A stretch of 64,000 bases of DNA from Promethearchaeota archaeon. Its GTDB lineage: Archaea; Asgardarchaeota; Lokiarchaeia; Sigyniarchaeales; SOKP01. Made by a program: the position numbers and the translations under genes. The notes below the pieces were generated by a model, which worked only from the letters and a program-made list of their open reading frames with translations, searched no databases and had not been told where the DNA came from. The DNA is taken from positions 96,001 to 160,000 of the forward strand of contig JAEOTP010000043.1 of NCBI GenBank assembly GCA_016839765.1, written 5' to 3'. The first letter of the stretch is position 1. Every line of letters begins with the position of its first letter. Positions 5,856 to 36,490 of the stretch are shown here, one piece after another.

Positions 5856-6338
5856 TTGGTGCCAAAGGACTTTACTATACGTTTAGCAACGATAAAAGAT
5901 GCTAAAGCAGTTCATGAGGTTTTATTAGCTGCTTTTGAAGAATATCGTTGTTTTTATTCTCCAGAAGGATTTGCAGACACTGTTTTATCAGAAGAAAAAG
6001 CAAAAGATCGTATTAAAGAAACGAAAGTATATGTAGCTGTTGATCAACACCGTAAAATAATTGGGACTATTGGTTGGCAGAAATTAAATGAAAATGAAGG
6101 ACATATTCGAGGAATGGGAGTAATACCAAGTCAGCAAGGCAGAGATAGTCCTGCAACATCGCTATTAAGACAAGTAGAAAGAGCTGCTCAGTTAGAAAGT
6201 TGTAAAATCTTGACTCTTGACACAACTGAAATTCTTAAAAGAGCTCAAAACTTTTATGAAAAAAATGGTTTTCAGAAAACTGGGAAAATTGGGGATTTCT
6301 TTGGGTCAATAATTTATGAATTTGCAAAGATATTATAA
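5856..6338 (+). CDS. GNAT family N-acetyltransferase
   Basis: GHIRGMGVIPSQQGR and AQNFYEKNGF motifs. Confidence 0.85.
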   Translation: MVPKDFTIRLATIKDAKAVHEVLLAAFEEYRCFYSPEGFADTVLSEEKAKDRIKETKVYVAVDQHRKIIGTIGWQKLNENEGHIRGMGVIPSQQGRDSPATSLLRQVERAAQLESCKILTLDTTEILKRAQNFYEKNGFQKTGKIGDFFGSIIYEFAKIL

Positions 6339-26450: not shown

Positions 26451-27506
26451 TCATTTAAAACTCATTTCTCTGCATTTATTAGCTTTTTCATACAGATGTA
26501 ATTTTTCATAACAAAAAGCTAAAGTTTCACAGAAATCTAAATTTTTAGGTTTCAATTTAAGAAGTTTTTCAAAATGTTGAATTGCTTTTCTATAATCTCT
26601 TTTAATATCGCAATAAATTTCTCCTAACTTCATTCTTGTAGAAGTATTATTAGGATTTTTTAGTAAAGCTTTCTTATAATAATAAACTGCTTTATCGTAA
26701 TCCTGTAATGCATAATAACTAAATCCCAAATTATCATATAATATTGGATCATCTGGTAAAATTTCTAAAGCTTCTTGAAAGCATGTTATGGCTTCTTTAT
26801 ATTTTTCTTTTACGTTATAAGATAGCCCTAAATCATTTAAAGCCTCAACACAAAACGGATCAATCTCTATTGCTCTTTTGTAATAATTTATCGCTAAATC
26901 ATAATTTTCTAATTCAAAAAGAATATCTGCTAATTCACACCATAAATCAGCATTATCAGAATCTAATTCTAATGCTTTTTTATAATAAAGAAGAGCCTTA
27001 TCATAATCTTGTTGATCGTAAGAAAGTATAGCAAGATTATTGTAAAGTAAAGAATCATCTGGATTAATTTTTAAGGCTCTTTCATAGCAATCAGTCGCCA
27101 TATGATACTGCTTCTCTCCTCTATATAATAAAGCCATATTATTTAAAACATCGGTATTACTAGGGTCATATTCTAAAGCTTTCGTGTAATATTCTAATGC
27201 GTTAGGATAATCTTCTTTATCTTCATAAGCAAAACCAATATTGTAGTATACAGTAGCATCTTCAGGTTCCAACTCAAGAGCCTTCTCATAATACTCAATC
27301 GCTTTATCTGATTCTCCTTTCATTGAAAGAGCTAATCCAATATTATTCCAAACTTCAGAAAAATAAGGATATATCTCAACAGCTCTTTGATAACACCTAA
27401 TTGCATTATCAAAATCATTTTCATTATAATAGGCATCCCCTAAATTAATCCACGCATCAGGATCGTCTGAATCTAGCTCAGTTGCCTTAATATAACGTTC
27501 AATCAT
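26451..27506 (-). CDS. TPR repeat protein
   Basis: About ten 34-aa TPR units (W/YxNLG..A..YY.KAL.L.P). Confidence 0.92.
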   Translation of the reverse strand: MIERYIKATELDSDDPDAWINLGDAYYNENDFDNAIRCYQRAVEIYPYFSEVWNNIGLALSMKGESDKAIEYYEKALELEPEDATVYYNIGFAYEDKEDYPNALEYYTKALEYDPSNTDVLNNMALLYRGEKQYHMATDCYERALKINPDDSLLYNNLAILSYDQQDYDKALLYYKKALELDSDNADLWCELADILFELENYDLAINYYKRAIEIDPFCVEALNDLGLSYNVKEKYKEAITCFQEALEILPDDPILYDNLGFSYYALQDYDKAVYYYKKALLKNPNNTSTRMKLGEIYCDIKRDYRKAIQHFEKLLKLKPKNLDFCETLAFCYEKLHLYEKANKCREMSFK

Positions 27507-27575: not shown

Positions 27576-28616
27576 TTATTCTAAAATCATCATTTTATCT
27601 TGTTTTTGATCTGTTAATAATATTCTAAAATATTCCTTATTATTCCTAAAAATGACTTTTTCCAACTTTCCCTCAACAAGAACAGTTTCTCCTTTAATTG
27701 CATGTTCACAGAATCTTCCTCTGAAGGAATTTATCGTAATAATATCATCCAATTTAATATTTTTTGAAATGCATATATTATTGTAGGCTTTTATGCATTC
27801 TATTTTATAGGAACAAGGTGTAAAGATAGCATTGGAGTCATCAGTGATTTTTGCTTTTAATTTTATTCTTCCCATATTTTTATATGAATAATCATAGTAA
27901 GTTCCTTTCCAATCTTTAGGACTTTTTATATATCTTATAAAAAATTCAAATCTCTTATACATGCCCTGATGGAGTTTCCTTCTCTCACTTTTTAAAAAAT
28001 TTTCAAATGGTATTCCTGAACCTCCTACTCTCCATCCATAATGAGTGCGGTATTCTTCTTTGGAATATTTTCTACAATATTTATCTTTTTCCAGGATAAT
28101 AGCAAGCTTATTTTGGAAATCTCGGCTTATGTCTGTTCCATAAACAATCAAATCAATATCAGATTGATTTTTGCTTAATCCAACCATTTGTGAACCTGTT
28201 ATACCGATTGAACCATATGGGAGTAATGAATTCTCGATAAGTAATTCACAAAGCTCTTTAGAACATTTTTCAAGATGGTTAGGATTAAATTTCTGAGATA
28301 ATTCTTTATAGTATTCTCGTGGGGTATAAATTTCTTTAATATCCTCATTTTTAACACATTGTAGCTCTAAATCGAATTGTTTAGAGAAGAATAAATAATT
28401 TGGATGATTATTTCTTAGGAAGGAGAATCTTTCTTGTAAATCGTAGATCTTTTTAAATTTCTTTCCATTTTTGATTCGATCTCCATCTAGATGAGGATAA
28501 AAACGTATAAAACAAATTTTTCGATCAGAAGGGTGATGGACCCCTTTCACATCGAAAAAAAAGTTATCATTTTTAGTTTCTATATAATCTCCTTCAATTC
28601 CTTTAGGAATTTTCAT
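27576..28616 (-). CDS. Archaeal predicted nucleotidyltransferase with a C-terminal OB-like domain
   Basis: GITGSQMVGL..SDIDLIVYG; EGDYIET..HP..FIRFYP; GKLEKV. Confidence 0.8.
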   Translation of the reverse strand: MKIPKGIEGDYIETKNDNFFFDVKGVHHPSDRKICFIRFYPHLDGDRIKNGKKFKKIYDLQERFSFLRNNHPNYLFFSKQFDLELQCVKNEDIKEIYTPREYYKELSQKFNPNHLEKCSKELCELLIENSLLPYGSIGITGSQMVGLSKNQSDIDLIVYGTDISRDFQNKLAIILEKDKYCRKYSKEEYRTHYGWRVGGSGIPFENFLKSERRKLHQGMYKRFEFFIRYIKSPKDWKGTYYDYSYKNMGRIKLKAKITDDSNAIFTPCSYKIECIKAYNNICISKNIKLDDIITINSFRGRFCEHAIKGETVLVEGKLEKVIFRNNKEYFRILLTDQKQDKMMILE

Positions 28617-28636: not shown

Positions 28637-29740
28637 TTAATATTTTGAAGGAGTTTTAGATTTGATTTTATATTTTGGTATCTCTTGAACTTTTTTCAAT
28701 TCTTTCTCAAAATCTCTTTTTTCTCTAAGGAACCTCTCTTTATCTCTTTCTAATTTTTCTCTTTCTCTTCTAATAGCATTTTTTTCAGTGTCTATCATCG
28801 ACTTTTCTTTTACTAAATGCTTATAATCATTATTTAATCTTTTTTGTTTATCTTCCAAATCACGAATCTTGCGTTCTAATGAATAATAAGTATCTTCCGC
28901 TTTAGGAACTTTCCTATTTAGCTCTTTTAATCTTGTTTCTTGTTGTTGTTTCTTTTTTTCCAAATTTCTTACATCATTTTCAATTTTATCTCTAAAGTTT
29001 TCCAAATCTTCTTTTTTTTTATCAATTTCACGAGCTTTAAGATTTAGATCTTTTTTTTTAATACGATTTTTTTCTTTTTCATCTTTTAATTTTCTTTTTT
29101 CATCATCAATCCGGTTTTTTTCATCAAAAATGTTTTTTCTTAGATCATTGATTTCTTTATTTAAATTATCCCTTTCTTTTGAAAGATGTTTGATTTCATT
29201 TCTCAACTCCATTAATTCATTTTCTAATTTTTCAATTGTTCTCTCTAATGCATTTTCTCTTCTTTCCATTCCAGGTATTTTGGTTTTAATCTCTTTAACA
29301 CGAACTTCTGCTCTTGCTTTTTCTCTTTCTAAATATTTTTTCTCACTTTCTAAAGCGTCTTTTAGTCTATCTAACTTTTCTTGATATTTATCTAGGTCGG
29401 CATTTTTTTGATCTAACTCTCTTTCTTTTAAACTTAGATTATTTCTATGTTGCTTTATTCCATTTTTCATTCTTTCTAATTCACTTTTTAACTTTTCACG
29501 TTGGTTTAGAAGATTTTTGACTTCAAGTTCTTTCTCTTTTCTCTTTTTTTCAAGTTCTTTTATATTATCTTGATACCCTTCAAGTTTTTTAATAACCTTT
29601 TCCCAATCGCTTTTTTCTCTGTTTAACTTTATCCTTTCTTCCTTTATCTTTTTAAGTAGTCTTGTATCTTGAATAATTTCGATTTCTTCTTCTGGCGTTT
29701 TCTCTCGAATTTGATACTTAGGAATTGGTTTATCATTCAT
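28637..29740 (-). CDS. Long coiled-coil protein with an internal duplication and matching terminal motifs
   Basis: K/E/R-rich heptads; IPKYQIREKTP at the N-terminus and IPKYKIKSKTP at the C-terminus. Confidence 0.8.
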   Translation of the reverse strand: MNDKPIPKYQIREKTPEEEIEIIQDTRLLKKIKEERIKLNREKSDWEKVIKKLEGYQDNIKELEKKRKEKELEVKNLLNQREKLKSELERMKNGIKQHRNNLSLKERELDQKNADLDKYQEKLDRLKDALESEKKYLEREKARAEVRVKEIKTKIPGMERRENALERTIEKLENELMELRNEIKHLSKERDNLNKEINDLRKNIFDEKNRIDDEKRKLKDEKEKNRIKKKDLNLKAREIDKKKEDLENFRDKIENDVRNLEKKKQQQETRLKELNRKVPKAEDTYYSLERKIRDLEDKQKRLNNDYKHLVKEKSMIDTEKNAIRREREKLERDKERFLREKRDFEKELKKVQEIPKYKIKSKTPSKY

Positions 29741-29944
29741 GATATTTCTTTAATTCATTTAATTTCTTAATTAAATTATATTAATATTAACTCTAAAGTG
29801 TTTGCAATTTGAAATTAGGCTCTTTTTGTATTTCTTGTAGATTCTATTTATATATTATAACTTCCATTATTTTTATTAAGAAATTACAAAAAATAATTAA
29901 AAAACTCAATAAAATTAATAATTCGAATAATTAGGTGTTTTTTT

Positions 29945-30373
29945 ATGGAGTTTGATGAAGAATTTGATGAAGAGTTTGATGATGAATTTGATGAAGAACT
30001 TGATGAAGAACTTGATGAAGAATTAGAAGAACCTTCTGCAAAAACTCCAGCGGAAGAGGTTAAAGCTAAAACTCCAGCGGAAGAGGTTAAAGCTAAAACT
30101 CCAGCAGTTAAAGCTTTTTCGGCAGGAAAAAAGATTTCAGTTTATTTTATGTCGACAATAGGTCCTGGTGAAAAAAAGCAAAAATTACTCATAAACACAG
30201 GAAACAGCGTTGGGGATATAAAAGAGACTGTTGCGAATTTATTTGGTTTAGATCCTGCTGATTTTCATTTATCTTCAGGTGGAATTACCATGGATGAGAG
30301 TTCAAATGTAAGTGAATATAACGTGAATGATGGAGAAGATATACTATTAATTCCAGCAAGTACTGCTGGTTAA
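29945..30373 (+). CDS. Ubiquitin-like modifier 1 with an acidic, repetitive N-terminal tail; ends -STAG
   Basis: Beta-grasp pattern SVGDIKETVANLFGLDPADFHLSSGG..VSEYNVNDGEDILLI; terminal Gly; E1/E2/JAMM/RING genes nearby. Confidence 0.88.
   Translation: MEFDEEFDEEFDDEFDEELDEELDEELEEPSAKTPAEEVKAKTPAEEVKAKTPAVKAFSAGKKISVYFMSTIGPGEKKQKLLINTGNSVGDIKETVANLFGLDPADFHLSSGGITMDESSNVSEYNVNDGEDILLIPASTAG
29948..30028 (+). repeat. Degenerate 12-bp coding tandem repeat encoding (F/L)DEE
   Basis: TTTGATGAAGAA / CTTGATGAAGAA units, about six copies. Confidence 0.85.
30041..30105 (+). repeat. 27-bp coding tandem repeat encoding KTPAEEVKA (two exact copies plus a partial one)
   Basis: AAAACTCCAGCGGAAGAGGTTAAAGCT at 30041 and 30068; partial copy at 30095. 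Confidence 0.92.
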
Positions 30374-30390
30374 AAAAAATCATTATCCTA

Positions 30391-31200
30391 TTAGTTTTTC
30401 TTTTTTAAATTTTTTTCTTTTCTTGATGGAATCAGAGCAATTTCGTCATCATCATCAATAGCATAATCTTTTATTTGTGAGTTTTCATGCAATAATATTC
30501 CTCCAGAGGATAAAAGAAAATCTTCTAAATTATAGTCAAATAATGTTCCAATTCTTTCTTTAACACTAAATATTAATTCTGTTGTATCAATTATAATGAT
30601 TTTTGTTTTTTCACCTGGCTCAACTAATGATCTTATATAAACTCGTATCTGGTCTTCCTTTTCAATAAAATTTGTAGGAGGTGTATAAATTATCCCCTCG
30701 TCAGTCTTATCCCTGTTTTTCAACATATTTTCGATTAATATTTTTCTCTCGTGTTTATCAAAATACAACATTTCTCTGATAAACATTATTTTATCCATTT
30801 TTGATAATTCTAAAAGATTTATTTTTTCTAATTCTTCCCCACTAAACACAGAAAAAATATATTTATTAATTATTTCCATATTATCATATGATTCATTTGA
30901 TTCAACATAATCTTCTATTGAAGGCATGACATCAATATAATCCTCAATAAGATCAATAGGTTTTTTTTTAATCGATTTTTGTTTTTTGACATATTTTTTC
31001 TCGCTTTTCCTCTCATCCTCACTACTCGCAGATTGAATAATTGTATAGATAGTACTGGTGGATAGTACTGAGACACTACCGATAACTAGAAAGAGAAATA
31101 AAGGAATACTTTCTATATGGAATAAGAAAAAAGCCATATAGATAATTACAAAAATAATATAAAGGGTTATAATACTTAAAACTCTATTTTTTTTCTTCAT
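30391..31200 (-). CDS. Membrane-anchored protein (2 TM) with a C-terminal UBL domain lacking the terminal Gly
   Basis: VYIRSLVEPGEK..VKERIGTLF..DFLLSSGG..IKDYAIDDDDEIALIP aligns to both modifiers; ends SRKEKNLKKKN. Confidence 0.82.
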   Translation of the reverse strand: MKKKNRVLSIITLYIIFVIIYMAFFLFHIESIPLFLFLVIGSVSVLSTSTIYTIIQSASSEDERKSEKKYVKKQKSIKKKPIDLIEDYIDVMPSIEDYVESNESYDNMEIINKYIFSVFSGEELEKINLLELSKMDKIMFIREMLYFDKHERKILIENMLKNRDKTDEGIIYTPPTNFIEKEDQIRVYIRSLVEPGEKTKIIIIDTTELIFSVKERIGTLFDYNLEDFLLSSGGILLHENSQIKDYAIDDDDEIALIPSRKEKNLKKKN

Positions 31201-31255
31201 GATTTTTTATTAAATTATTATCTAAATTTCTAATATATAATTTAAAATTTAAATT

Positions 31256-31280
31256 CCATTGGAATGAATTTGAAGTTTTT
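31256..31280 (-). promoter_or_regulatory. 25-bp motif, copy A, upstream of the membrane-UBL gene
   Basis: Minus strand reads AAAAACTTCAAATTCATTCCAATGG, identical to plus strand 32121-32145. Confidence 0.7.
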
Positions 31281-31284
31281 ATTT

Positions 31285-31956
31285 TCATACACCTTGCATT
31301 TTTTTTCTAACTTTAGAATATTTATCTGTATCTAATTGGAATGTAATTCTTTTTTTTTCTTTTTCAATTTTTATTAATTTCAGTTTTTTTAAAACATATA
31401 AATATTTTTTAATTATATTATGATTCTTTTTTAAGTTAGTTGCTATTTCTGTAATTTTTAATGCTTTATCTTCCTTTTTCATAAAATTAATTATTTCTTG
31501 AACAATAGCCAAATTTAAATAATAATAGAGCTCGTCAAGTTCTGGATTTGAATCGTATTTATAAATAATTCTTCGATTGTTAATTTTTTTTGATCTAACA
31601 AATCGAAATTTTTCCAAACAAGATAGATGCCATAAAGCTTGATTACTTCCGATATTTAGAGCATTCATTATTTCATTAATATTTGACGGATTTTTCTTTA
31701 TGTAATTAAAGATTTCATTCCTTACTGGATGTTCAATAATATTATTTTTCATCAATTTTGTTCCAGGAATGATCATTCTCTTTTTAATAAGATTTTTAAT
31801 GGTAATTTCAATCCTAGCTTTATTGATAAAGGGATTTGATTTTACCCTATTACTAATAAATACAACAATGTTTTGTATTGAAAAGAATGGTTTTTTTTCT
31901 AAATATTCTTTTACTAATTCAAGAATAATAGATTCGACATTATTCATAGAGTTCAT
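31285..31956 (-). CDS. Tandem winged-helix (ArsR-like) transcriptional regulator
   Basis: HPVRNEIFNYIKKNP..EIMNALNIG..WHLSCLE and a second HTH, ITEIATNLKKNHNIIKKYL. Confidence 0.85.
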   Translation of the reverse strand: MNSMNNVESIILELVKEYLEKKPFFSIQNIVVFISNRVKSNPFINKARIEITIKNLIKKRMIIPGTKLMKNNIIEHPVRNEIFNYIKKNPSNINEIMNALNIGSNQALWHLSCLEKFRFVRSKKINNRRIIYKYDSNPELDELYYYLNLAIVQEIINFMKKEDKALKITEIATNLKKNHNIIKKYLYVLKKLKLIKIEKEKKRITFQLDTDKYSKVRKKMQGV

Positions 31957-32120
31957 AACCCTATACTTTTATAATGTTAAAATATTTGGATTTTGTAAAT
32001 ATATATTCTTTCTGCAACATTATTTTACACCTTATATAATTATTAGGCATTCATTCAATTTATAATATCATTTCTTAGGCATCCAAATAAGTTTCTTTTT
32101 ATTTTAAGTTAAAAAACTAA

Positions 32121-32145
32121 AAAAACTTCAAATTCATTCCAATGG
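32121..32145 (+). promoter_or_regulatory. 25-bp motif, copy B, upstream of the Ubl2-E1-E2-JAMM-E3 genes
   Basis: AAAAACTTCAAATTCATTCCAATGG, followed almost immediately by TATA-like TTTTATAA. Confidence 0.7.
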
Positions 32146-32225
32146 GTTTTATAATATCGTTTTAATGCGATTTTATTAAACTTAAAAAATAAAAAATTAC
32201 AAAATAAAAAAAAGTCGTGAAATAA

Positions 32226-32552
32226 ATGAGTTTTGAAGAAGATTTTGATGAGGAATTAGAACCTGTTAAATCTAAAACACCATCTACCAAAATTCCTTCA
32301 GCAGGAAAGAAATTGACTTTATACTTTACGTCAACCATTGGACCTGGTGAAAAGAAGGAAAAATTAACGGTAAATGATGCTAATCATGTAAGTGATATTA
32401 AGGAAACATTAGGAAATTTATATGGCCTTGATCCTAATGATTTTCACTTATCATCTGGTGGAGTTACTATGGATGAAAATAGTCAATTAAAAGATTATAA
32501 TTTAAATGATGGCGACGATATTCTTTTGATTCCTGCGAGTACTGCTGGGTAA
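32226..32552 (+). CDS. Ubiquitin-like modifier 2 with a short acidic tail; ends -STAG
   Basis: Close paralogue of 29945-30373: VSDIKETLGNLYGLDPNDFHLSSGG..LKDYNLNDGDDILLIPASTAG. Confidence 0.9.
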   Translation: MSFEEDFDEELEPVKSKTPSTKIPSAGKKLTLYFTSTIGPGEKKEKLTVNDANHVSDIKETLGNLYGLDPNDFHLSSGGVTMDENSQLKDYNLNDGDDILLIPASTAG

Positions 32553-32631: not shown

Positions 32632-33867
32632 ATGGTGATAATATTGGATAAAGATTCAGATTTTTTTGCAAAAGCATTGTCAGTAAAAGAGAGAGATTTG
32701 TATGATCGCCAGTTTCGTCTCGAGGGCTGGTCCCAAAAATTAGTAAAAAACTCGAGAGTGTTAATTGTTGGTGTAGGAGGTTTAGGATGTGAAATTGCTA
32801 AAAATTTAGCCATGTTAGGGTTAGGCCAATTAGATCTTGTTGATTTAGATATCATTGAACATTCTAATTTGAATCGTCAAATTCTTTTCACAGATGCGAA
32901 GATAGGAGAACCTAAGGCAGTTGTTGCTGCTCGAAAACTAAAGGAAATTAACCCTAATATTATTGTTAAGGGATATCATACATCTCTAGAAAGATTAAAT
33001 CCTGCATTATATCAAGCTGCTGAAGTTGTAATTGGGGGCCTTGATTCAATGAATGCGCGCTTGAACTTAAATGCTCAATGCATAAGATTTAGAAAACCAC
33101 TCGTAGATGCAGGAGTATCAGGTTATCATGGTCATATTTACACTATCTTTCCGTATCAAAATGCTTGTTATGAGTGCAATCCATTACCAGTAAGTGAAAG
33201 TGATGAAATGGCAGCTTGTACAGTTGTTGGAGTCCCCAGAAAAAGGATTCATTGTGTTTTTAAAGGAGATATGGCATTTAAAGAAAAGTTTGATAGAGAT
33301 CCAAATCCAAAAGATATAAATGATATTAAATTTATTCAAAAAGTTGCAAATGAATTGGTCAATAAACATAATTTCTTACCTGAATACACTAAAGATGATA
33401 TCATAAAAATCATTGATAGGCATGATCCTGGAATAATTACCATAAATGCAGTTATTTCTGCTTTACAATCACATGAGGTAGTAAAAATTCTTCATTGGAA
33501 AAAAGGTCATAAAGGATTAGGAGAACCTATTAAAAATTATGTGATTTTTAATGCCATGACGATGAAATTATACCATATTGAAAAAACGAGAAATCCAGAA
33601 TGTTCTCAATGTGGTAAATCTGTTAGAAGAGTAGCTATAAAAATGAGGTCTCAATCGCCATGTATAAATATAATTAAGATATTAAAGAAAAACGGATTTG
33701 AATTGGAGCCTGATTTTGAACCTGTGCTAACCTTATTGGATTTCAATGATATTAAAGTAATTGATTTAGAACAGAATACTATTGAAAACGGTTTAAGAAA
33801 TTACGAATTTATTACAGTTGCAGGGTTTAAGGGTGGAGAAATTTATGTAACCTTAAAATTAAAATGA
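32632..33867 (+). CDS. Ubiquitin-like activating enzyme E1 (Uba2/Uba3-like)
   Basis: LYDRQ, GVGGLGCE, DLDIIEHSNLNRQ, CYEC...CSQC Zn site, catalytic ACTVVGVPRKRIHC, C-terminal extension. Confidence 0.93.
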   Translation: MVIILDKDSDFFAKALSVKERDLYDRQFRLEGWSQKLVKNSRVLIVGVGGLGCEIAKNLAMLGLGQLDLVDLDIIEHSNLNRQILFTDAKIGEPKAVVAARKLKEINPNIIVKGYHTSLERLNPALYQAAEVVIGGLDSMNARLNLNAQCIRFRKPLVDAGVSGYHGHIYTIFPYQNACYECNPLPVSESDEMAACTVVGVPRKRIHCVFKGDMAFKEKFDRDPNPKDINDIKFIQKVANELVNKHNFLPEYTKDDIIKIIDRHDPGIITINAVISALQSHEVVKILHWKKGHKGLGEPIKNYVIFNAMTMKLYHIEKTRNPECSQCGKSVRRVAIKMRSQSPCINIIKILKKNGFELEPDFEPVLTLLDFNDIKVIDLEQNTIENGLRNYEFITVAGFKGGEIYVTLKLK

Positions 33868-33973: not shown

Positions 33974-34501
33974 ATGAGTATAAGAAGTAGTCGCGTTTCC
34001 CGCGATTTTGCTGGATTAAAAAAAATGCTTAAAGTTGGTACTATAGTTCAACTAAAACCATTTAATTCTAAAAAAAAGAGCATTGATCATTTAGCTATCA
34101 CAATTAAAGGCCCTAAAGGTACTGTCTTTGCTGGGGGACTTTTTAAACTAGAAATGAGATTCCCTGCTCAGTATCCTAAGCAGCCTCCTTTTGTAAGAAT
34201 GCATACTCCAATTTGGCATCCAAATTTTTGGCCAAAACCAAGTGAATACAAAGGAAAGAGAAATATTTGTCTAGCATTAATAGACCCTTCCTTAATTGGG
34301 AAAAAGGGTGGATGGAGTCCTTCAAAAACCGCTGTTACAGTAGTTCAAGCAATAATTGCTATGTTAAATACCCGGGGTAAATATGTAAACCCAACAGATG
34401 TTTTTAATAAAAAAGCAGCAATAGAAATGATGAAAAATCCTAAATTTTTCGAGAAAAAAGTTAAAAATTTAGTGAAGAAGTACGCTAAGAACAAGTGGTG
34501 A
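33974..34501 (+). CDS. Ubiquitin-conjugating enzyme E2 (UBC fold)
   Basis: GPKGTVFAGGLF..FPAQYPKQPP..IWHPN..ICL..WSPS. Confidence 0.95.
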   Translation: MSIRSSRVSRDFAGLKKMLKVGTIVQLKPFNSKKKSIDHLAITIKGPKGTVFAGGLFKLEMRFPAQYPKQPPFVRMHTPIWHPNFWPKPSEYKGKRNICLALIDPSLIGKKGGWSPSKTAVTVVQAIIAMLNTRGKYVNPTDVFNKKAAIEMMKNPKFFEKKVKNLVKKYAKNKW

Positions 34502-34508
34502 AATCATA

Positions 34509-35315
34509 ATGAATATTGATGAGAAGAAAAACAATTTAATCAAAGAAGCAATAAAGCAAAAAATTAAAGAGAAAATTAAAAAAGAATTACTTGAAGAGAT
34601 ATATACCGAATTACAATTAGAAGAAGAATTAAGGGAAGAAATAACTTCTGAACTTATTGAAACCCAGCCATTAGAGCATTCAGAAACAGTTAAAGCCAAA
34701 CTTGAACCCATACCAATGGAACCGGTAAAAACATATGCTAAGAATGATAAAGCTGAAGCAAAAGTAGCTCTAACAGTAAAAGCTGTCCTTAAGATCGCTA
34801 GTCATTCATTAAAATATGCTCATTCTAAAATTCGAAGAGAGGAATGGGTTGAAGTGATAGGATTACTCGCTGGAAAATTTGACAATACTAAAGGAGTCCT
34901 TCATGTGGAAGATGCCTATCCAATGGGACATGGTACAGCAGTTTATGCTGAAATTAAAGATTATAAAAATTATGTTAGAGCTTTTAAAGACATAAAAAAG
35001 AACAGCCTTTTTATTTGTGGATGGTATCATTCCCATCCTTCTTATGGATGTTTTATGTCTAAAGAAGATTTAGGAACTCAAGCAAGATACCAAAAATTAT
35101 GGGATAAAGCAATTGCGCTAGTTATAGATCCATACCAAATTGATGGCACTTCATTGGGTTTTGAAATCTATCGTGCGAATTTTAAAACAAATAAGTGGTT
35201 TTCAGTACCATTTGATATTAAAGGATATTTAGATGTGAGAATGTTGCCGGAAATTTTGGAATTTATGAATCCAATCATTGAAGGTAAACCTGTTTATTTA
35301 GAATATGATGAATGA
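34509..35315 (+). CDS. JAMM/MPN+ isopeptidase (Rpn11/CSN5-like) with an N-terminal coiled region
   Basis: EVIGLLAG...GWYHSHPSYGCFMSKED..TQ..ALVIDP. Confidence 0.93.
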   Translation: MNIDEKKNNLIKEAIKQKIKEKIKKELLEEIYTELQLEEELREEITSELIETQPLEHSETVKAKLEPIPMEPVKTYAKNDKAEAKVALTVKAVLKIASHSLKYAHSKIRREEWVEVIGLLAGKFDNTKGVLHVEDAYPMGHGTAVYAEIKDYKNYVRAFKDIKKNSLFICGWYHSHPSYGCFMSKEDLGTQARYQKLWDKAIALVIDPYQIDGTSLGFEIYRANFKTNKWFSVPFDIKGYLDVRMLPEILEFMNPIIEGKPVYLEYDE

Positions 35316-35338: not shown

Positions 35339-36490
35339 ATGGTTAAAAAGAAGGGTTTAGCAATAATATTTATTGTTTTTCTAATAATTGGTATAATACA
35401 TAGTTCTATCTCAATTTCCTTAAATATTTTTTTAACTTGGATATTTATTGGTTTATGGATAATTTTTACGATTAAGATTTTTGAAAATATAAAGCAGCAT
35501 CGCGAATTCAATTCACCACATAATACTGCTTTTTTTGTAATCATCCCTTTATTCATCGGAATTTTTTACTCCATTTGGGGGTATTTTACAGGTATATTGG
35601 GTGAAAACCTTCTTGAAGGCTCAAATATATATTTTAGTTGGTGGAGTCTCATTTTTGGATTTCCATTTATAATATATGGTTCTTATTCTTTATATCGTTG
35701 TTTTAAGAAATATAATGTAATCTATTTTGGAACCAAGTCAGTAAAAGCTAGGACATTAGGATATATTTTAACTTCCACAGTTATTCTTTTTATAATAATT
35801 TATTGGGTAATGTTTTATAGTGTTATAGAATTTTATGATTCTCTATTAACCCCTCTTCATTTTTCTTTAAATCTAAATCTTCTATTATTATTCATTGCAT
35901 CATTATTGATCTTTATTATTTTTGGATTAGCTAGTTCACATAGAACACTTCCAACATTAACTCGGGATTACATTGCTCAACGTACTAGAAGAATAAATTC
36001 ATTAAGTACTCCTACAATTCAAAGGCAAAGGGTACGTACAACAACTAGAACTACTCCATCACCTTCAAGAAGAACTGTGACTCAAACAACGAGGTCTAGA
36101 TCTCATTCATCGAGAACAACACCTACTTCCCAAAGGCAAAAAACTAGAACAACAAAAACTACTAGAACTAGAGCCGTAAAAACAACTTCAAAAGCTATAA
36201 ATTTAGATAAATATAAACCAAGAGCATCATATCTGTCAGAAGATGATTTTAAATGTATTTTTTGTTTTAAGCTGCCAAAACTACCCGATGATAATGGCAG
36301 AGGGATAATTGTATGTCCAAATTGTAGATATCCGGCTCATGCTGATGAATTTAAAGATTGGCTAAGAACCTCAAATCTCTGTTCAAGATGTAGTACTCCC
36401 ATTCCATCCAGATTTAAACATAATCCTAGAATAATTAGTATAAAAAATTATCAAATAGTCTATAGGCATTTTTTAAAGAAGAAAAGATAA
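35339..36490 (+). CDS. Multi-pass membrane protein with a C-terminal RING-variant domain (putative E3 ligase)
   Basis: About 6 TM helices, an R/T/S-rich linker, then C-x2-C-x16-C-x2-C-x4-H-x2-E-x10-C-x2-C with the RING Trp (KDWL). Confidence 0.85.
   Translation: MVKKKGLAIIFIVFLIIGIIHSSISISLNIFLTWIFIGLWIIFTIKIFENIKQHREFNSPHNTAFFVIIPLFIGIFYSIWGYFTGILGENLLEGSNIYFSWWSLIFGFPFIIYGSYSLYRCFKKYNVIYFGTKSVKARTLGYILTSTVILFIIIYWVMFYSVIEFYDSLLTPLHFSLNLNLLLLFIASLLIFIIFGLASSHRTLPTLTRDYIAQRTRRINSLSTPTIQRQRVRTTTRTTPSPSRRTVTQTTRSRSHSSRTTPTSQRQKTRTTKTTRTRAVKTTSKAINLDKYKPRASYLSEDDFKCIFCFKLPKLPDDNGRGIIVCPNCRYPAHADEFKDWLRTSNLCSRCSTPIPSRFKHNPRIISIKNYQIVYRHFLKKKR

Follow-up and report, generated by a model that had tools for sequence, protein, structure and literature searches.

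The subject of this analysis is a short motif of lysine and proline found in two ubiquitin-like proteins (Ubls) of a Promethearchaeota archaeon and also in a coiled-coil protein whose gene is adjacent to theirs. The genes lie in a window (the whole stretch of DNA that was analysed) of 64,000 nucleotides, covering positions 96,001 to 160,000 of the forward strand of contig JAEOTP010000043.1 (assembly GCA_016839765.1), and coordinates are given within this window. Ubl1 (29945..30373, plus strand) has a long acidic tail, three motif copies with lysines K33, K42 and K51 (30032..30103), a ubiquitin-fold domain and an Ala-Gly end. Ubl2 (32226..32552, plus strand) has a short acidic tail, a motif copy at K17 together with a degenerate K-I-P copy at K22 (32265..32297), and likewise a ubiquitin-fold domain and an Ala-Gly end. 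The coiled-coil protein, a candidate substrate or partner of 367 amino acids (28637..29740, minus strand), has a disordered head (residues 1-25), one long helix and a disordered tail, with motif copies on the minus strand at K14 near the N-terminus (29693..29710) and at K362 near the C-terminus (28649..28666). Two degenerate internal copies, K154-I-P (29273..29290) and K277-V-P (28904..28921), coincide with the two prolines of the rod.

The remaining genes of the locus include an intact conjugation cascade. On the plus strand, Ubl2 is followed by an E1 activating enzyme with a ThiF domain (32632..33867), an E2 conjugating enzyme (33974..34501) in which HPN and Cys99 are present and a conserved insertion of seven residues precedes the cysteine, and a JAB/MPN isopeptidase (34509..35315). 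Next lies a candidate E3 (35339..36490), a hydrophobic multi-helix protein in which a C-terminal RING-like Cys/His cluster can be read; one ligand position of this cluster is occupied by Glu, and a Pfam search of the protein gave no match. It is conserved across loci. On the minus strand, between the two Ubl genes, are a membrane-anchored Ubl-domain protein (30391..31200), which has neither the terminal Gly nor the motif and serves as an internal control, and a winged-helix regulator (31285..31956). Apart from the three Ubl domains of this locus, the genome has no Pfam ubiquitin match.

All of the peptides quoted in a preliminary description of this DNA, which had proposed hydrophobic-K-x-K-T-P as the acceptor or docking consensus of the E2, were found in Ubl1, Ubl2 and the coiled-coil protein. 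Together the three proteins contain six K-T-P tripeptides where 0.11 would be expected, and four or more were obtained in none of 20,000 composition shuffles. The hexamer K-S-K-T-P-S, as that description had noted, is common to Ubl2 and the coiled-coil protein; no other protein of the proteome contains it, and it was absent from all 30 shuffled proteomes. At the DNA level, three synonymous differences separate the two copies of this hexamer, which rules out recent copying of DNA between the two genes. The three Ubl1 copies lie within a perfect 27-bp tandem repeat (30041-30105), so they are not independent and represent a single event. The acidic tail of Ubl1 (29951-30024) contains a 12-bp tandem repeat of 6.2 copies whose length is variable among relatives. 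Two of the six K-T-P copies, the first of Ubl1 and the N-terminal one of the coiled-coil protein, do not fit K-x-K-T-P. A genome-wide scan, of the kind proposed in the preliminary description, revealed no enrichment of K-x-K-T-P (11 seen, 12.1 expected), while K-T-P was seen 140 times with 130 expected. A proteome scan with the strict form of the corrected pattern given below returned 25 matches, five of them inside this locus, with 14.9 expected. The best-placed outside match, the N-terminus of aIF2-alpha, was rejected as a further substrate, as K, T or P is lost within the same genus. At the locus itself, the motif is genuine and greatly exceeds chance expectation.

A search of 301 genomes drawn from the phylum found the Ubl family in 122, distributed over eight families, and the matching E2 subfamily largely in the same genomes. 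Conservation of the motif in orthologues, on which the preliminary description had staked its proposal, was borne out, while the form of the consensus had to be revised. Among 112 Ubl tails, K-[T/V]-P is present in 104 and K-x-K-[T/V]-P in just 52. The position before [T/V]-P is lysine in 183 of 202 cases in Ubl tails and in 99 of 106 cases at coiled-coil ends, and arginine in none of either, although the sequences are related and the counts thus overstate their independence. Columns of the tail alignment were anchored on the motif; the per-sequence counts are independent of the alignment. The first lysine of the pattern as originally proposed is retained in 31% of Ubl2 orthologues, and two residues before the motif lysine the coiled-coil ends have K in 45 cases and R in 36. 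It is therefore the second lysine that is constant, the first being variable and interchangeable with arginine, and since this constant lysine stands three residues after the hydrophobic position, the suggested mapping onto psi-K-x-E is not supported either. As read from these sequences, the Asgard-wide consensus is hydrophobic-x-[S/T/E/A]-K-[T/V/I]-P, with the K of K-T-P as the conserved lysine. The residue before proline is Thr in 166 of the 224 K-x-P occurrences in Ubl tails, and where it is replaced, Val or Ile (24) outnumber Ser (8); some paralogues carry K-V-P or K-I-P alone, and all nine copies in the partner protein at locus L171 lack Thr. At the motif K, T and P, codons vary freely among synonyms, and the lysine itself is under strict selection. 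Across 23 orthologues of the coiled-coil protein (26-73% identity, 281-569 residues), K14, P16, K362 and P364 never vary. No other lysine of its 75 is invariant, and 58 of the 75 show arginine somewhere. In the Ubl, the core lysine K46 is also invariant.

The motif is confined to the modifier tails and the partner protein. When the strict motif was counted over 80 further loci, it was found in 53 of 53 coiled-coil proteins, 67 of 79 Ubl2 and 33 of 55 Ubl1, and in no E1 (64), E2 (61), JAB (58), RING-like protein (41), membrane Ubl (58) or regulator (61); one of 293 other neighbour genes contained it. Distant families have a Pro/Lys-rich disordered neighbour of 204-286 residues with five to nine motif copies (shuffle mean about 1). 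Five genomes, from two genera, that lack the Ubl yielded no orthologue of the coiled-coil protein; the weak coiled-coil matches in these genomes belong to another coiled-coil family and lack the motif. In most loci reaching it, the coiled-coil gene is divergent from a Ubl gene, with exceptions at L121, where it is co-oriented upstream, and at L081/L082, where it lies downstream of the operon. The number of motif copies ranges from one to four per tail. The motif always lies within about 3-25 residues of the Ubl domain, at variable spacing, and it goes with the domain into several fusion proteins.

Relatives of the modifiers occur in several other settings. Motif-less Ubl paralogues with an acidic tail and terminal Gly stand beside motif-bearing ones at L131:7505-7876, L173:1604-1924 and L176:3790-4098, and are candidate chain terminators. 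The Ubl domain is also found at the C-terminus of unrelated proteins (L081:9691-11448, L121:2264-3718, L119:10072-11583, L098:6583-7506, L135:12703-14658, L133:13770-14660 and L142:7012-7695), where its partners include a vWA domain (Pfam) and others resembling an ATPase fragment, a roadblock-like domain and a Cys-rich domain. Because most of these fusions retain Ala-Gly and some the motif, they may be conjugatable cargo. Extra stand-alone Ubl2 copies with the motif lie off-operon among unrelated genes (L250, L272, L275, L276, L280 and L283, around 6001-6333), and a record titled Nanopelagicaceae bacterium (L245), probably mislabelled or from a mixed bin, carries the same Ubl at 87% identity. 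The present genome has a second small cassette (L163:5628-7904, G000 contig C33) encoding a JAB, an E1-like, an E2-like and an 87-residue protein that ends in Gly-Gly plus three residues and has neither tail nor motif. A second related E2 (L162:7213-14000, G000 contig C23), near a 524-residue E1-like gene and a gene for a long helical protein, occurs also in genomes without the Ubl operon.

Structure prediction places the motif in flexible regions. The coiled-coil protein was modelled as one helix (residues 26-352), and both main motif copies fall in its disordered ends; the degenerate copies at the rod prolines are less conserved than the end copies, and in 40 orthologues a lysine stands two residues before 57 of 66 rod prolines. 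A look-alike search of the ESM Atlas with this protein gave scores that were all under 0.9. The single-chain model of Ubl2 has a ubiquitin fold and an unstructured tail, with a predicted local distance difference test (pLDDT) value of about 50. A complex of three chains (the E2, the Ubl core and the C-terminal 32 residues of the coiled-coil protein) was predicted with a score of 0.33, the best control, including one with the E2 replaced, scoring 0.00; at least 75% of contacts agreed between runs, and the pLDDT of the partner was at least 53. This prediction weakly supports the reading favoured below, and the 0.00 of the E2-replaced control is not taken as evidence against Ubl binding. In calibration, 58 of the 80 solved pairs and 2 of the 110 mismatched ones attained the mark. 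Of those that attained it, just seven solved complexes, but both mismatches, had scores of 0.60 or below. The interface was not specified, and the prediction shifts the odds little.

The reading that we favour, at a probability of about 0.55, is that this Asgard E1-E2-RING-JAB system uses the motif as its conjugation-site consensus, the motif lysine serving as the acceptor, with tail-linked chains and a dedicated substrate. An acceptor lysine fits best because the lysine is strict and never gives way to arginine, lies in disordered segments and is present on conjugatable modifiers and on one co-inherited partner, and because yeast Smt3 offers a precedent. In such a pathway, the E1 and E2 would activate the modifier via its terminal Gly, and the E2, by itself or together with the membrane RING-like protein, would bind the extended motif and so act as its reader. 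The modifier would then be ligated to the motif lysine at each end of the coiled-coil rod, chains would grow through the motif copies of the modifier's own tail, and the JAB would trim precursors and remove tags. The coiled-coil protein is a first candidate natural target of this tagging system, and the motif lysine is the probable site of attachment.

Several observations weigh against this proposal. A strictly retained lysine would equally fit a binding pocket or another lysine modification, and several site copies in one tail are also compatible with non-covalent binding through avidity. The motif is not required of a modifier, since it is missing from some Gly-ending paralogues (L131, L173 and L176). 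Nor is a site consensus a given for such enzymes, because the Caldiarchaeum cascade modified several lysines of Rad50 (PMC5654768). The score of 0.33 for the complex model falls in a range where wrong predictions outnumber right ones, and the calibration was unlike the three-chain job.

The main rival is that the motif is a non-covalent docking peptide for a pocket on the E2, the RING-like protein, the JAB or some other reader, the coiled-coil protein being a scaffold or tether and the lysine being held by an acidic pocket. The number of copies in the tails and disordered partners is typical of multivalent binding, a beta-branched residue before proline with a hydrophobic residue at -3 would suit an extended bound peptide, and the weak E2 model cannot separate docking from conjugation. 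Docking motifs built on basic residues, however, usually tolerate arginine, and here arginine never takes the place of the motif lysine while a neighbouring position shows it; docking is a serious possibility but on balance we consider it rather unlikely. A related idea, that the motif binds the ubiquitin-fold domain itself in the manner of a SUMO-interacting motif, resulting in self-inhibition or in head-to-tail non-covalent polymers nucleated by the coiled-coil protein, would explain why it always lies near the Ubl domain and accompanies it into fusions. This is very improbable in view of the unstructured Ubl2 tail in the single-chain model, the membrane-anchored Ubl that retains the fold but not the motif, and the variable spacing between motif and domain.

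The motif could instead be a site for some other modification that regulates the system, either proline-directed phosphorylation of Thr, which the preliminary description had raised as a possible phospho-switch, or methylation or acetylation of the lysine. Thr is the commonest residue before proline, the genome has two weak protein-kinase matches, and small lysine modifications would likewise forbid a change to arginine. The phospho-switch is disfavoured because Thr is exchanged for Val or Ile more often than for Ser and some carriers, including the L171 partner, have no Thr copy at all; moreover, no kinase or lysine-modifying enzyme accompanies the locus in the neighbourhoods examined, and the whole class of explanation appears improbable. 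That the motif arose by chance, or from the shared low-complexity make-up of Lys/Pro-rich tails, is scarcely credible: although K-T-P is not rare genome-wide and a single DNA repeat yields the three Ubl1 copies, the motif is conserved across the phylum with synonymous divergence, while the true chance match in aIF2-alpha decays within a genus. A chance or low-complexity origin is refuted by the orthologue data.

The closest architectural parallel is with SUMO, as the preliminary description had suggested. In yeast Smt3, the tail consensus lysines K11, K15 and K19 are the main chain sites (PMC5319795); human SUMO2/3 has K11, Ubc9 reads psi-K-x-D/E (PMC5319795, PMC4866545), and SUMO1 is a chain terminator (PMC4866545). 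Like SUMO, the Asgard modifiers have a ubiquitin fold preceded by a flexible N-terminal tail in which lysine motifs are repeated, a putative substrate shares the motif, and, as with SUMO2/3 and SUMO1, there are paralogues with and without the motif, the latter in one family. The differences are as marked. The hydrophobic residue is at -3, a beta-branched residue and proline follow the lysine, and there is no acidic residue at +2; the Ubl orthologues end in Ala-Gly throughout, with a single Gly in place of the di-Gly of the SUMO family; the E1 is a single chain, a JAB stands in place of a Ulp protease, and a dedicated partner is co-encoded. The Pfam score of the Ubl is 28.2 bits for ubiquitin, over the cut-off, and 21.9 for Rad60-SLD, under it, and among fold matches ISG15/ubiquitin-type domains come top with SUMO within 2 Z units. 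The E2 has an invariant HPN, and its insertion just before the cysteine is absent from known E2s; its best matches are Ubc15 (59.9 bits), Ube2T (about 52) and Cdc34 (about 51), ahead of Ubc9 (47.2), and these scores show no affinity to Ubc9. The E1 matches Uba1, Sae2 and Uba3 about equally (131-136 bits). Judged by these comparisons, the E2, E1 and modifier appear to have no special kinship to the SUMO pathway. Because of the single terminal Gly, the absence of psi-K-x-E, the nearer E2 matches and the evenly matched E1, the system is by these tests not a SUMO pathway; by analogy, it would be SUMO-like in architecture with a different motif.

Comparison with other systems gives a similarly mixed picture. 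The Caldiarchaeum subterraneum operon encodes Ub, E1-like, E2-like, a small RING protein and Rpn11 (PMC5654768, PMC6043591), and with a foreign Rad50 as substrate, modification by its cascade was E3-dependent and fell on several lysines (PMC5654768). The same cascade classes are co-encoded here, namely Ubl, an E1 with its catalytic Cys region, an E2 with HPN and Cys, and a JAB, and many Ubl orthologues likewise are pro-forms with short C-terminal extensions. Caldiarchaeum, in contrast, has a di-Gly ubiquitin, chains via core lysines and a soluble small RING, in an operon described without a native substrate, whereas the present system has an Ala-Gly end, an acidic tail with the motif, two paralogues, a membrane RING-like protein and a motif-bearing neighbour. 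In Lokiarchaeota, the available part of one account describes a Ub/E1/E2/JAB region that is similarly discrete, apart from the ESCRT cluster, and in that part does not describe a tail motif, coiled-coil partner or acceptor site (PMC9192718). Asgard homologues of UFM1 have been reported (PMC12962969), and the single terminal Gly is shared with UFM1. The E1, however, is far nearer Uba1, Sae2 and Uba3 than Uba5 (about 61 bits), and the E2 has the canonical HPN unlike UFC1. Among the 50 fold matches listed for the Ubl, UFM1 does not appear.

Around the core genes, a 346-residue protein with a nucleotidyltransferase-like look and no Pfam match (27576-28616, minus strand) and a TPR protein (26451-27506, minus strand) trail the coiled-coil gene throughout the genus, though not in other families. 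A 31-bp element is present at 31250-31280 and at 32121-32151 (94% match, inverted on the plus strand), upstream of the membrane-Ubl gene and Ubl2 and adjoining a TATA-like run. Its 20-bp core, at up to two mismatches, occurs at just these two sites genome-wide. The element is kept in most family-level relatives checked and is probably a shared operator, perhaps for the winged-helix regulator.

In the literature searched, from which subscription journals were largely absent, no description of the motif or of the coiled-coil partner was found in an Asgard context, nor was a natural substrate or site consensus given for an Asgard Ubl cascade. The present analysis names a substrate candidate and exact lysines, K14 and K362 of the coiled-coil protein and K17 of Ubl2, and thereby reduces what Asgard Ubl systems modify to one in vitro question. 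More tentatively, a large Asgard branch may run a SUMO-independent, motif-directed Ubl pathway that has an acceptor consensus of its own and in which tail-linked chains would be built on both ends of a dedicated rod scaffold, or along a disordered one, with motif-less paralogues as caps and cargo domains attachable via C-terminal Ubl fusions; SUMO-style site recognition and chain logic would then exist outside eukaryotes. If the acceptor reading is true, sequence-directed lysine choice and tail-linked chains, both hallmarks of SUMO, would also have arisen, or pre-existed, in the archaeal relatives of eukaryotes.

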